Shown here: in pieces, positions 2,810 through 52,500 of the stretch
Numbering within the stretch: position 1 is the stretch's first letter
Layout: each line of letters starts with the position of its first letter
NCBI GenBank assembly: GCA_951406725.2
Contig: OX597835.1
Coordinates: forward strand, 37,882,001 to 37,946,000
Length of the DNA stretch: 64,000 nucleotides
Direction: 5' to 3'
From: Octopus vulgaris
Lineage: Eukaryota
The notes under the pieces: generated by a model
Databases searched by the model: none
Told to the model about the DNA's origin: nothing
The model's input: only the letters and a program-made list of their open reading frames with translations
Program-made: the position numbers and the translations under genes

Positions 2810-3665
2810 TCATCATCATCATCATCGTCATCATCGTCATTGTTGTCATCACCGTTTAACGTCTGCTTTCCATGCTGGGTTGGATGGTTTGATATGGAGC
2901 TGGCCATTGGAGTGCTGTCCAGACAGCAATTGTCTGTTGGGGCATGGATTCTTCAGCTGGATACCATCCCTAACACCAACCTATTTCTTTACTACCCACA
3001 AAGGGTTAAACACAGAGGGGACAAACAAGGACAGACACACGGATTAAGTCGATTACATCGACCCCATTGCGTAACTGGTACTTATTTAATCGACCCCGAA
3101 AGGATGAAAGGCAAAGTCGACCTCGGCGCAATTTGAACTCAGAATGTAGCGGCAGACGAAATACCTATTTCTTTACTACCCACAAGGGGCTAAACTCAGA
3201 GGGGACGAACAAAGACAGAAACACCGATTAAATCGATTACATCAACCCCAGTGTGTAACTGGTACTTAATTTATTGACCCTGAAAGGATGAAAGGCAAAG
3301 TCGACCTCGGTAGAATTTGAACTCAGAACGTAGCGGCAGATGAAATACCACTTAGCATTGCGCCCGGCGTGCTAACGATTCTGCCAGCTCACCGCCTAAC
3401 ACCAACCACTTAACAGAGTGTGTTGGGTGCTTTCTATGTGCCACTGGCACATCTGTGTTTATGCGGCACTAGCTTTTTAAGTGGCACCAGCCTCTGAAAG
3501 GACAAGCCTATATGAGTGGAGGACAGTGATTTTATTTACCTTAATGCATCTTACCAAGTACAGCAAATTGTCACACCTCCTGGTCCCTTGTCATCTCCTC
3601 AGTGAGGTCCAGCATCCAAAGAATCTTTCTCACTACTTCATCCTATGATTTTTCTGTTTTTCTTC
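2810..3665 (-). mobile_element. 5'-truncated RTE-like LINE 3' end, interrupted by a SINE B dimer
   Basis: (CAT)n tail at left. Reverse complement of 3580-3645 encodes DEVVRKILWMLDLTEEMTRD, matching the RTE ORF end at ~49010-49060. Confidence 0.7.
2982..3394 (-). mobile_element. SINE family B, head plus two tandem ~184-nt bodies
   Basis: 13-nt TSD cctaacaccaacc at 2969-2981 and 3395-3407; body repeated twice. Confidence 0.9.
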
Positions 3666-7342: not shown

Positions 7343-7757
7343 GTGGTGAGCTGGCAGAAACATTAGCACGCCGGGTGAAATGCGTAGCTGTATTTCGTCT
7401 GCTGCTACGTTCAGAGTTCAAATTCCGCCGAGGTTGACTTTGCCTTTCATCCTTTCAGGGTCGATAAATTAAGTACCAGTAACGCACTGGGGTTAACATA
7501 ATCGACTTAATCCCTTTGTCTGTCCTTGTTTGTCCCCTCTGTGTTTAGCCCCTTGTGGGTAGTAAAGAAATAGGTATTTCATCTGCCGCTACGTTGTGAG
7601 TTCAATTTCCGCCGAGGTCGTCTTTACCTTTCATCCTTTCGGGGTCGATAAATTAAGTACCAGTTACGTACTGGGGTCGATGTAATCGACTTAATCCCTT
7701 TGTCTGTCCTTTTTTGTCCCCTCTGTGTTTAGCCCCTTGTGGGTAGTAAAGAGATAG
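7343..7757 (+). mobile_element. SINE family B dimer
   Basis: Bodies start at 7390 and 7574 (period 184), joined at aaagaaatag|gtatttc. Confidence 0.9.
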
Positions 7758-7759
7758 GT

Positions 7760-13052: not shown

Positions 13053-13865
13053 TACATGGCTCAGTGGTTAGAACATCAGGCTTACAATTATGAGGTAGTG
13101 AGTTCGATTCTCAGACCAGGCTGTGTTGTTCTCTTGAGCAAGACACTTTATTTCACATAGCTCCAGTTCACTCAGATGTAGAAATGAGTTGCGGCATCAC
13201 TGGTGCCAAGCTGTATCAGCCTTTGTCCTTCCCCTTGGATAACATCAGTGGCACAGAGGGGGGACGCTGGTATGCATGGGTGACTGTTGGTCTTCCATAA
13301 AAAAAACATTGCCCAGACTTGTGCCTCAGAGAGGGGAACTTTGGAGGTGCAATCCCATGGTCAGTCATGACCGAAGGGGATTTTCACCCTTACTCTATGT
13401 GCATATAGTGGTGTAGAGAGGGGACGCTGGTAAGCATGGGTGACTGCTGGTCTTCCTTAAACGACCTTACTTGGACTTGTGCTTCAGAAAGGAACTTTCT
13501 CGGTGCAATCCCATGGCCATTCGTGACTGAAGGGAGTCTCTACCCTTCACCTTTTGTACATATAATGGAGTGGAGAGTGGACGCTCGTATGCATGGACAA
13601 CTGCTGGTCTTCTATAAAACAACCCTGCATGGACTTGTGCCTTGGAGGGGAATCTTCCTTGGTGTAATGCCTTGGTCATTCATGACCAAAGGGTATCTTT
13701 ATCCTTAACATATGTACATATAATGGTGTGGAGAGGAGATGTTGGTATGCATGGGACACAGCTGGTCTTCTATAAACTACCTTACCTGGACTAGTGCCTC
13801 AGAGGGGAACGTTCTGGGTTCAATTCCATGGTCATTCATGATTGAAGGAGGTCTTTATCCTTTAC
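13053..13865 (+). mobile_element. CORE-like SINE family E followed by three extra tandem copies of its ~157-nt 3' segment
   Basis: tRNA head tggctcagtggttag...gttcgattc; CORE-like ttgagcaagacactttatttcac...gaaatgagt; 3' unit ggtatgcatggg...catgaccgaaggg occurs four times. Confidence 0.8.
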
Positions 13866-13986
13866 ACTTTAATAACAATAAAAACAGCAAAAGTATAAAC
13901 AACAGTGGAAGCAAACAACAACAACAATATTGTGTCTGTGGTTTATGTGGCCATTGACCATTCAGAAATAGCAGCCAAATCTCCCT

Positions 13987-19329: not shown

Positions 19330-21400
19330 ACTACCACCACCACACAACCACCAGCATCACCATTACTGCCAACACCACCATCTGTGCCACTACCACCACC
19401 ACCACAACCTTCGTCATCATCATCACCACCACCATGATCAACATCACTGCTATCATCACCATCACAACCACTACTTGCACCACTAGCACTACCTCCACCA
19501 CATCCACCACCACAACTACCATCAACTCCATCACCATGACCACTACCTCCACCACTATCACCACCACCACCACCACCATCATCATCATCACCACTGCAAC
19601 CATCACCGCCAACACCAAGACCACCACCAATGCCATCTCTTTCACCACCACCAGACAACCACCATCACCATCATCACTACCACTACCTTCACCACTATCA
19701 CCACCACCACCATTACAGCTACCACCACCATCACCATCATCACCACTGCAACCATCAACCCCACCACCAAGACCACCACCAACACCACCACCAATGCCAC
19801 CTCTTTCACCACCACCACCAGACAACCACCATCACTACTACCACTACCTCCACCACTGTCACTACCACCACCACCATTACCACTACCACCACTGTCACCA
19901 TCATCACCACTGCAACCATCACTGCCACCAATGCCATCTCTTTCACCACCACCACCAGACAACCACCATCACCATCATCACTATCACTAACCCCACCACT
20001 ATCACCACCACTACCACCATTACAACTGCCACCACTGTCACCATCATCACCACTGCAACCATCACTGCCACCAATGCCATCTCTTTCACCACCACCACCA
20101 GACAACCACCATCACCATCATCACTATCACTAACCCCACCACTATCACCACCACTACCACCATTACAACTGCCACCACTGTCACCATCATCACCACTGCA
20201 ACCATCACTGCCACCAATGCCATCTCTTTCACCACCACCACCAGACAACCACCATCACCATCATCACTATCACTAACCCCACCACTATCACCACCACTAC
20301 CACCATTACAACTGCCACAACTGTCACCATCATCACCACTGCAACCATCACTGCCACCACCAACAACACCACCAATGCCATCGCTTTCACCACCACCACC
20401 AGACAACCACCATCACCATCACCATCACCACTACCACTACCACCACCACCATTACAACTACCACAACTGTCACCATCATCACCACTGCAACCATCACTGC
20501 CACCACCAACAACACCACCACCACCACCAGACAACCACCATCACCATCACCACTACCACTACCTCCACCACTATCACTACCACCACCACCACCATTACAA
20601 CTGCCACCACCATCACCATTATCACCACTGCAACCATCACTGCCACCACCAACAACACCACCAATGCCATCGCTTTCACCACCACCACCAGACAACCACC
20701 ATCACCATCACCACTACCACTACCTCCACCACTATCACTACCACCACCACCATTACAACTACCACAACTGTCACCATCATCACCACTGCAACCATCACTG
20801 CCACCACCAACAACACCACCAATGCCATCGCTTTCACCACCACCACCAGACAACCACCATCACCATCACCACTACCACTACCTCCACCACTATCACTACC
20901 ACCACCACCATTACAACTGCCACCACCATCACCATTATCACCACTGCAACCATCACTGCCACCACCAACAACACCACCAATGCCATCGCTTTCACCACCA
21001 CCACCAGACAACCACCATCACCATCACCACTACCACTACCTCCACCACTATCACTACCACCACCACCATTACAACTGCCACCACCATCACCATTATCACC
21101 ACTGCAACCATCACTGCCACCACCAACAACACCACCAATGCCATCGCTTTCACCACCACCACCAGACAACCACCATCACCATCACCACTACCACTACCTC
21201 CACCACTATCACTACCACCACCACCATTACAACTGCCACCACCATCACCATTATCACCACTGCAACCATCACTGCCACCACCAACAACACCACCAATGCC
21301 ATCGCTTTCACCACCACCACCACCAGACAACCACCATCACCATCATCACTACCACTACCTCCACCACACCACCATCAACACCACCACTGCTACTAACAAT
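19330..21400. repeat. CAC-rich minisatellite, about 12-13 units of 128-167 nt (mode 158)
   Basis: Recurrent anchor aatgccatc(g/t)ctttcaccaccaccaccagacaacc; ORF starts MSGGGG recur at 19658, 19825, 19962, 20105, 20248, 20406, 20534, 20695, 20853, 21011, 21169, 21330. Confidence 0.95.
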
Positions 21401-45076: not shown

Positions 45077-45254
45077 CTTGAAATGTATTTAACTCATAGA
45101 TGGGACTCTATGAGTTATATACAGGAAAGACAAAGCTTTACAGTAGAGAGAGGGAATTAGAGAGGTAACAAGATAAAATAATTGAGATATAGATAAGTTG
45201 ACTATAAATGTCAACTTACACATACATACATGCATACTTACATACAGGCAGACA

Positions 45255-49955: not shown

Positions 49956-50585
49956 TATATATATACATACATACATATTTAATATATATATATATATATA
50001 TATATATCTACATGCACATGTATGAATGTATATTTGTTGTGTTATCGACATGGAACAACACATAAATGAGCATGTGTATCGGAAGCATGGATTTCCATAT
50101 TATTTTTTTTTTTTTAATATCCAGAAAATCTTATCGAAACAACATATAATAGAAATTTTGATGAAAATAACAGAGAGCCATTCAGTACGGCATTGTTTCA
50201 ATTATCAATTCTATTGTATTCCAAATTTCTATAACATGTTGTTTCTATGAAATTTTCTAAAACACCAGAAAAAAAACCATGTAAATTCCCACATGTGTCA
50301 GGTGGAGGATTATATAAGATAAGCAGCAGTGAGAGAAAGGGAAGAATTATTGCTGTCAACAGACGTGGGTGTTGCTGTGCGGTAAGAAATTTGTTTCCCA
50401 ACCACATGGTTTTGAGTTCAATTCCACTGCTTTGCATCTTGGGAAACCGGGCAAGTGTCTTCTACTATAGCCTCTGGCCAAAATCTTGCAAGGGGGTTTG
50501 GTATGTATAAGCTTGTTGCTTATACATACATACATACATATATACATACATACATACATACACACATACATACATACATACATAT

Positions 50586-50617
<32 letters not shown>

Positions 50618-50780
50618 GTATATTGGCAGGGCTGGCCTGCTAGGTAGCCGGCCAGAATGCTAGAAATAGATCATAAACGATCAAACTACAAGGGAAATTC
50701 TCTAGAGGAAGAATTCAGCGAACACCAGAACCGAATTTGGCGGGCAGGACATATGAAAAATTAAATAAAAAACAGACTTA

Positions 50781-50856
50781 AATGCATACCTCGGTTTCGG
50801 TCTTAACAAAAGAATTACTTGCATAATTCAAGTGTCCATGACTTCTTCAGTACATT
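50781..50856 (-). ncRNA. Type I hammerhead ribozyme motif (arm 1)
   Basis: Inverse copy of 51387-51462. Confidence 0.65.
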
Positions 50857-51386
50857 CGGTCCTCGAGATGCAAACCGCAAGACTAACCCCAGCTCTCTGT
50901 GTCAAGACAGACACGTGCTTAGTCTTACTGATTACATCGGGAATAAAATTTCAAATGTCTTGGTTCCGGCGCGCTAAGAGACTCCTGAAGCGAAGGGCTG
51001 CAGTGAATAATTCACTGCGGGTAAAGCTTACTGCTAGGGAACGTATTTATTTAAATATTTAAAAATTGAGGGAGATGAATTAATATTAATTTTAATATCA
51101 ATTTAAAACCAGTAGTCCAGCATTCAAAAAATCTGAGGAGTCAGAGAAAATTCATATATATGTGTATATTGGCAGGGCTGGCCTGCTAGGTAGCCGGCAC
51201 GTTCCCTAGCAGTAAGCTTTACCCGCAGTGAATTATTCACTGCAGCCCTTCGCTTCAGGAGTCTCTTAGCGCGCCGGAACCAAGACATTTGAAATTTTAT
51301 TCCCGATGTAATCAGTAAGACTAAGCACGTGTCTGTCTTGACACAGAGAGCTGGGGTTAGTCTTGCGGTTTGCATCTCGAGGACCG

Positions 51387-51462
51387 AATGTACTGAAGAA
51401 GTCACGGACACTTGAATTATGCAAGTAATTCTTTTGTTAAGACCGAAACCGAGGTATGCATT
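51387..51462 (+). ncRNA. Type I hammerhead ribozyme motif (arm 2), predicted cleavage after A51456 (GUA)
   Basis: aatgta-CTGAAGA-AGTC...GACC-GAAA-CC-GA-GGT-A-tgcatt: 6-bp stem I, intact core, short stem III; A-C at the base of stem II. Confidence 0.7.
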
Positions 51463-51730
51463 TAAGTCTGTTTTTTATTTAATTTTTCATATGTCCTGCC
51501 CGCCAAATTCGGTTCTGGTGTTCGCTGAATTCTTCCTCTAGAGAATTTCCCTTGTAGTTTGATCGTTTATGATCTATTTCTAGCATTCTGGCCGGCTACC
51601 TAGCAGGCCAGCCCTGCCAATATACACATATATTTGAATTTTCTCTGACTCCTCAGATTTTTTGAATGCTGGACTACTGGTTTTAAATTGATATTAAAAT
51701 TAATATTAATTTATCTCCCTCAATTTTTAA

Positions 51731-51779
<49 letters not shown>

Positions 51780-52104: not shown

Positions 52105-52140
<36 letters not shown>

Positions 52141-52500
52141 TTCAGCAAAATTTAGATACATATGAATATGGTGCTTAAGTTAAAGGCACCAGAATTTGGT
52201 ATGGCATTATCCATATAAATCAAATGGGGTGATTATAATCAAAATAAGCAACAAGGATATCCAAGCTAGTGTAGTACAATCGTTTCATGCTACTTCATTT
52301 TATTAAACACTGTAAGTATTACATCAGTTTTAAAATGTCGAGCAATCTTCAGCCACATATAGAATTTTTTAATTAAATAGACAATGTACATTTTTATACT
52401 TATTCCATTTGCCAACATTACAAAGAGGGTAGATATATAGACAAAGCGGTTAATTTCATCATTTTTCATCATTTATATATATATATATATATATATATAA

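Follow-up and report, generated by a model that had tools for sequence, protein, structure and literature searches.

The insert and its hammerhead motifs

The window, the whole 64,000-nucleotide stretch of the Octopus vulgaris genome analysed here (contig OX597835.1), contains an insert of two head-to-head arms, 589 and 538 nt long, of a circularly permuted, non-coding 546-nt unit set in (TA)n (Table 1; unit coordinates, m, are window positions minus 51198 on the hammerhead-sense strand). The locus is one young, recently inserted copy of a protein-less 546-nt repeat family. TA-type tracts adjoin both outer ends, as the initial annotation had described, while its layout A-C/B-A/inverse(C-A-B) was built on repeats that are real and is read more simply as two arms of one permuted 546-nt unit. 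The arms that it put at about 420 bp with about one difference are found as a 435-nt inverted pair (50610-51044/51199-51633) with two differences, of which 50616 is at the TA-like edge and 50838/51405 is internal. A second inverted pair (51053-51198/51591-51736) spans 146 nt with two differences, and a direct repeat of 45 nt occurs at 546-nt spacing.

Table 1. Features of the insert and its flanks, in window positions
Feature	Position	Strand	Remarks
Left (CATA)n/(TA)n tract	50523..50618	none	likely pre-existing target
Left arm	50610..51198	-	589 nt: m393-546 then m1-435; ends at E2, without tail
Fixed end E2	50610..50624	-	about m430-435; predicted RT start site, by analogy with PMC11167929
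Type I hammerhead motif	50780..50857	-	core at 50850; predicted cut after 50787
Internal tail copy and 8-nt head-to-tail unit junction	51045..51155	-	identical junction in tandem copies at other loci
Head-to-head arm junction	51198..51199	none	m393 joins m1; blunt here
Right arm	51199..51736	+	538 nt: m1-538; ends at E1, with tail
Type I hammerhead motif	51386..51463	+	core at 51393; predicted cut after 51456
Tail between E2 and E1	51634..51736	+	about 100 nt; ~80% identity to sister-family tail
Right (TA)n tract	51737..51770	none	adjoins right arm

In the window ORF scan, no ORF of at least 120 aa overlaps the insert, in agreement with the annotated absence of a visible RT/GIY-YIG ORF, and the 12 other window ORFs have no Pfam match. 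An RT plus GIY-YIG ORF between pLTRs, by which an autonomous Penelope-like element is recognised, is present neither in the insert nor in the fetched copies. The arms differ at 1 of 422 compared sites, which, together with relatives at 97-100% identity, supports the recent insertion proposed earlier; under a calibration given in PMC13282606, where a distance of 0.09 corresponds to 25 million years, the insertion age is estimated at a fraction of a million years, with a wide error. Other repeats in the window include a CAC-rich 158/316-nt minisatellite (19532-21386), a second 158-nt array (13256-13866), 184-nt tandem duplications of a dispersed repeat (2979-3349 and 7390-7759) and, immediately left of the target tract, part of a dispersed repeat with a very high copy number (50357-50480).

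Each arm carries a type I hammerhead, as had been claimed. On the plus strand, helix I (51386-92/51457-63) has seven pairs, two of them G-U, instead of the six previously counted; helix II has three to four pairs plus a long extension, GAAA lies at 51445-48, and helix III has three pairs with a 2-nt loop, for which pairing between two copies is possible. The earlier label 'minimal' does not hold, since minimal hammerheads are by definition without helix III (PMC4209133; Cervera and de la Pena 2014), and the motif, with its 3-bp helix III and long helix II, is therefore of the canonical type I. A hammerhead descriptor matched three window sites and none in each of 60 block-shuffled windows, and the cut predicted on the plus strand is the one expected in the initial annotation. 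A covariance-model search, also proposed there, found no match to the Rfam hammerhead models at the gathering score nor at E<=10.

The expectation that core and stems would be conserved is borne out by an invariant core (N7 free) among family copies, by compensatory changes in helices I and II, and by conservation of core and stems over three tiers of families. Across 16 aligned copies, 96% of cells pair, both partners have changed in six pairs, of which two belong to helix I and four to helix II, and helix III is invariant (16/16); four sister-family rows were excluded from this count because they were misaligned, related sequences can exceed shuffles in such a count, and the helix II signal comes partly from few copies. 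The basal pair of helix II is unpaired in 8/16 aligned copies, and the young subfamily has an A-C mismatch there, which, as read from the sequence, would count against ribozyme activity. The predicted energy of the hammerhead fold exceeds the local minimum by 1.7 kcal/mol, and circular folding of the L017 unit gave z = -3.7 against 25 shuffles. With a single hammerhead per strand, the insert could not free a unit-length RNA through a pair of cuts; the ribozyme of a read-through transcript would likely be sequestered, lying within the 435-bp duplex.

Between (TA)n tracts at window 52140-52480 (core 52352, minus strand), there is a third hammerhead of type I that belongs to an unrelated family, and similar motifs occur in L137, L150 and L170. 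Unrelated long-helix-II type I hammerheads were also seen in the flanking DNA of L009, L030, L033, L044, L064, L068, L100, L104, L120, L124, L154, L156, L159, L164 and others, so such elements, missed by Rfam, are abundant in the octopus genome. L166:4780-5045 represents a further dispersed hammerhead family, at least about 230 nt long, with 2465 candidates, some of them inverted.

The family and its insertion ends across the genome

The genome (2.8 Gb, 227 contigs) is rich in AT microsatellites. The copy number and identity that the initial annotation had left to a genome search were obtained in two ways: a DNA search with the unit found 47 full-length matches at 97-100% (40 scored of 1279 candidates), and the exact and relaxed hammerhead patterns had 186 and 523 genome matches, respectively, each with 0 for the reversed control. 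The matches fall into young (97-100%), older (82-90%) and more distant families. Among 20 fetched variant-match loci, 19 belong to the 82-90% subfamilies with the same period and ends, and one to another family. A sister family has the same permuted non-coding layout at ~70% identity overall and ~80% in the tail, and a third, more distant relative also has two arms in (TA)n. The family is present in contigs from four public runs under four organism labels; parts of the unit are covered by contigs of four runs guessed to be RNA, so this coverage is not taken as evidence of expression, and no RNA run holding the unit is among the public runs listed.

The sample of insertions comprises the 70 distinct insertions behind the first 100 of the 186 hammerhead matches (one unfetched insertion omitted), chosen by the hammerhead match only; adjacent separate insertions were trimmed by hand at five loci in all sets together. 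These are 41 simple head-to-head inversions, 22 single arms and 7 complex insertions, a distribution that supports the Penelope-type partial-tandem and inverted layout suggested at first. At L020:644-3534, a whole inverted insertion is tandemly duplicated with its flank. The head-to-head junction lies at a different position at every locus, whereas the outer ends fall at two fixed sites ~100 nt apart, E1 near m536 and E2 near m435. The simple inversions are 33 E1/E2, 2 E1/E1, 0 E2/E2 and 6 E1/other, so that the pairing of E1 with E2, and with it a tail on one end only, holds in 33/35 classifiable inversions (p=1.8e-8 against one half). Single arms end at E1 in 13 cases and at E2 in 9, and in the older subfamilies 8/10 inversions are E1/E2, the other two having one unclassified end. 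Either arm may be the longer (medians 441 and 411 nt), and 39/123 arms exceed one unit. Two or more tandem hammerhead units occur in 13/70 insertions; such arrays have up to four units and a 546-nt period, and in them the sequence upstream of the hammerhead comes immediately after the tail.

An alternating run stands beside 99/101 loci on at least one side and on both sides of 70/101, compared with 15.8% and 7.4% of random window positions; a target-site duplication would be masked in such (TA)n. Look-alikes of the empty site were found for 8/101 loci, mostly in a repeat already holding a microsatellite at that spot. At 13/52 E2 ends, the (CA)n run exceeds its internal counterpart in length, perhaps through repeated slippage when copying starts.

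A GIY-YIG profile search of the genome (150 scored of 6136 candidates) revealed resident Penelope-like elements. The commonest family has a 781-aa frame with matches to RT, just below the Pfam cut-off, and to a C-terminal GIY-YIG nuclease; a 479-aa frame lies upstream, the period is 4713 nt, and the flanks are (TA)n. A four-cysteine motif read from the sequence precedes the nuclease and suggests a Neptune or Nematis type, on a clade feature taken from PMC8557442. At 44 loci of this family, 9/9 classifiable inversions, distinct and chosen for a tail on one arm, are tail-less on the other arm; one further inversion has a different end, and the locus edge truncates another two. The protein-less hammerhead unit thus leaves the same paired-end signature as the resident Penelope family. 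A homolog search with the resident RT returned 540 relatives, and (TA)n ends occur in at least four RT/GIY-YIG families. At L095:244-5460 and in its relatives, there is a young ORF-bearing Penelope-like family with 479-aa and 781-aa frames and a 40-nt tail, whose terminal repeat holds a hammerhead-like motif with a U3-A8 core variant.

No unit hammerhead or tail in line with an ORF was found in 68 distinct GIY-YIG loci (150 scored of 6136 candidates), and no unit copy runs in line into an ORF among the fetched copies. The copy 1.7 kb downstream of a GIY-YIG ORF at L091 was rejected as pointing to a partner, as it is a separate insertion beyond a (TA)n tract, and the same applies to L278. A chimeric origin of the unit from two elements facing each other, suggested by L166, was also dropped: none of 40 scored candidates repeats the arrangement, and the piece in common is a sister-family tail. 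With a closed non-coding 546-nt period and no ORF-joined copy found, the earlier view of a non-autonomous, retrozyme-like unit gains support, and the family is very probably to be classed as a non-autonomous, Penelope-mobilised hammerhead unit.

Probable copying of the two arms from one template

At shared polymorphic sites, tandem copies within a locus differ at 13/602 (2.2%), the arms within a locus at 33/975 (3.4%) and copies of different loci at 45213/155920 (29%), in a comparison from which three diverged loci were dropped and to which two others add alignment noise. Among locus-private alleles, 18 are in all copies of the locus, 89 in one copy and 2 in some (75 loci, 7 dropped), where alleles counted as private may exist in unsampled loci. 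Within any one locus, the units of an array, up to four in number, are uniform, and part of the within-locus identity could have been added by gene conversion after insertion. Overall, priming of both arms on one template has a high probability in our judgement, and the paired fixed ends likely arose when a borrowed Penelope enzyme copied one RNA twice, from each side of the DNA break.

Inner ends show a hot spot at m151-155 (12/157), inside the long hairpin, which is likely a polymerase stall. A double change at m167/169 (window 51365/51367) restores the state of older subfamilies and recurs on several haplotype backgrounds; it is mixed within eight loci (L013, L029, L033, L041, L047, L119, L132 and L137), a point against the explanation preferred below, is also found in three public runs, and may be templated by the nearby ribozyme core.

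Arms of one haplotype would also be expected if the mirror arm were formed by fold-back, through the self-priming proposed for head-to-head Penelope repeats (PMC3846280), and were then trimmed by an endonuclease at two sites. The E1/E1 locus L128 (2620-3690), with inner ends 7 nt apart and mirrored host flanks, is a true fold-back palindrome, and clean junctions overlap by at least 2 nt at 17/33, where about 16% is expected; the other 30/63 junctions have extra or mismatched bases, partly an effect of the reference used. However, 19/51 E1/E2 loci violate both simple untrimmed fold-back geometries, a few of them narrowly. Inner ends lie at most 50 nt apart at 12/61 junctions, with 11.4 expected by permutation, and their distances fit the permuted null at 10, 30, 50 and 100 nt (two junctions with foreign DNA between the arms excluded); therefore, short loops are not enriched. 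The combination of one haplotype with independent inner ends argues against fold-back, which we consider improbable as the general route. Still less probable is that the copies are truncated tail ends of an ordinary autonomous Penelope element yet to be found. Short copies of the resident autonomous family have the same layout, and the partner search covered 68 of 6136 candidates, yet the tail runs straight into hammerhead-upstream sequence in arrays, the closed non-coding unit persists at 82-90% and about 70% identity, and no fetched copy stands in line with an ORF. That the inversion is an assembly or library artefact is hardly credible: among the public-run matches listed, no contig, all being short, bridged the junction of the insert itself, but this architecture is shared by dozens of loci, whose junctions differ and whose ends follow a fixed rule, several sites distinguish the arms, and the pattern is repeated in two sister families and in an unrelated ORF-bearing family.

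The most serious competitor concerns the form of the template, namely two-sided Penelope priming on an uncleaved linear read-through of a tandem array, with the hammerhead kept for another step or for regulation. In vitro work on Poseidon of the green anole found that hammerhead mutants insert and that the main substrate is RNA left unprocessed (PMC11167929), and the 13/70 insertions with tandem hammerhead units are possible sources of such a transcript, which, being made of identical tandem units, agrees with every genomic count. At the predicted cut (m255-263), 2/157 inner ends were found and 2.6 expected, so that cut linear monomers are not the template, and this lack of a pile-up suits an uncut one. 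On the other hand, a multimer has several E1 and E2 sites, yet same-site pairs are 2/35. In addition, arrays are uniform within a locus, truncation alone would shorten them over generations although multi-unit arms recur in young and older subfamilies, and core and stems are conserved in three family tiers. We therefore hold the linear template to be unlikely. A monomeric circle is preferred because it contains E1 and E2 exactly once each and allows arms longer than one unit.

On balance, we lean slightly towards the view that the unit is a non-LTR retrozyme which depends on a Penelope enzyme for mobilisation in trans, and that this enzyme primes the two target strands on a single RNA, which is likely circular. 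Tandem source loci would be transcribed and their hammerheads would cut and close unit-length circles, as the retrozyme literature suggests, and both strands of a (TA)n tract, the observed target, would be nicked by a putative Penelope-like RT/GIY-YIG protein. Of the two 3' ends, one would then begin at E1, the other at E2, which lies 100 nt farther upstream in the same template RNA; the paired use of these ends is observed, and priming is predicted from the in vitro work on the lizard element. Each cDNA would extend an independent distance, often beyond one unit length as observed, and the cDNA ends would be joined head to head with or without short microhomology, a presumed repair step consistent with the observed junctions. 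Beyond PMC11167929, the counts show paired use of the two sites by independent runs on a single haplotype.

A broader proposition, advanced tentatively and at somewhat less than even confidence, is that Penelope integration in general is a twin-primed rolling circle, in which an enzyme dimer primes both strands at two sites of one circular RNA, and the two polymerases would chase each other round the circle before the cDNA ends are joined. If true, pseudo-LTRs and tandem retrozyme arrays as well as the inverted arm and the tail at one end would all come from this one process, which would need no conventional second-strand synthesis in inverted copies. How Penelope integration is completed and how animal retrozymes move are presented as open in the cited papers, and the family links both questions by genomic counts. 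The twin-priming and circle models can be tested directly thanks to the small size of the unit, its many young copies and its haplotype markers, and the unit family offers a clean test of Penelope second-strand synthesis.

Relation to known elements

The insertion architecture is already published, and the unit family is of a known kind with a longer tail and an unusually clean mechanistic signature. Pairs of hammerheads on opposite strands, 100-700 bp apart, have been reported (PMC4209133), while the available text of PMC9977147 does not describe insertion ends. No description of the unit family, of a cephalopod retrozyme or of a paired-site count was found in the literature covered, which lay mostly outside subscription journals and Repbase; the unit may already be in the repeat library behind PMC13282606 under another label.

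Retrozymes are regarded as Penelope derivatives in a preprint (10.64898/2026.07.22.740005), in which cleavage was seen in 1/9 tested dimers. Like non-LTR retrozymes (Cervera and de la Pena 2020, PMC7229834; Li et al. 2026, 10.64898/2026.07.22.740005), the family has non-coding tandem units, a canonical type I hammerhead and low GC; a dependence on Penelope-like elements has been proposed for them as it is here, and 546 nt falls within the preprint's range of 51-972 bp. A type I hammerhead in each unit and the lack of protein-coding capacity are shared with retrozymes, and at least two consecutive hammerhead units, also used to define them, are seen in the family (13/70) but not at the insert, with its one per strand. 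Non-LTR retrozymes are further characterised by the absence of a primer-binding site and of a polypurine tract, and by self-cleavage and accumulation as circular RNA, which would be predicted for the unit as well. The family differs from non-LTR retrozymes in that its insertions are mostly dispersed, consist of one to four units and have one arm inverted and the tail on one side only; the available text of PMC7229834 on animal retrozymes does not use the word 'inverted'. No link to a resident pLTR was found for the unit (68 GIY-YIG loci, from 150 scored of 6136 candidates), in contrast to 24/57 Xenopus families matching known elements in the preprint.

The partial tandem, the inverted 5'-truncated copy and the head-to-head orientation, as well as a tail often at one end and AT-rich microsatellite targets, are shared with endonuclease-positive Penelope-like insertions (Craig et al. 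2021, PMC8557442; Arkhipova et al. 2013, PMC3846280), in which, unlike the unit, an RT or GIY-YIG ORF is present and the tail is 30-40 instead of about 100 nt. Chlamys MRC1 (PMC8557442) also has non-autonomous Penelope-like units with pLTRs and multicopy head-to-tail insertions; however, canonical hammerheads are reported absent from the Chlamys clade, and the non-autonomous members of that clade to be similar to their partners at the 3' end, whereas no such partner of the unit was found among the 68 GIY-YIG loci. In vitro, the Penelope protein of Poseidon, predicted to be a dimer, cuts and extends both strands of AT-rich DNA from two internal RNA start sites that bound the tail, the hammerhead being dispensable for insertion and no reads ending at its cut (Frangieh et al. 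2024, PMC11167929). The unit has in common with Poseidon the two fixed internal sites bounding the tail, the AT-rich target and an AC-containing start region. In the portion of that study available, no start-site difference is seen between strands and the inverted arm is not addressed, whereas the sites of the octopus unit are paired in 33/35 inversions.
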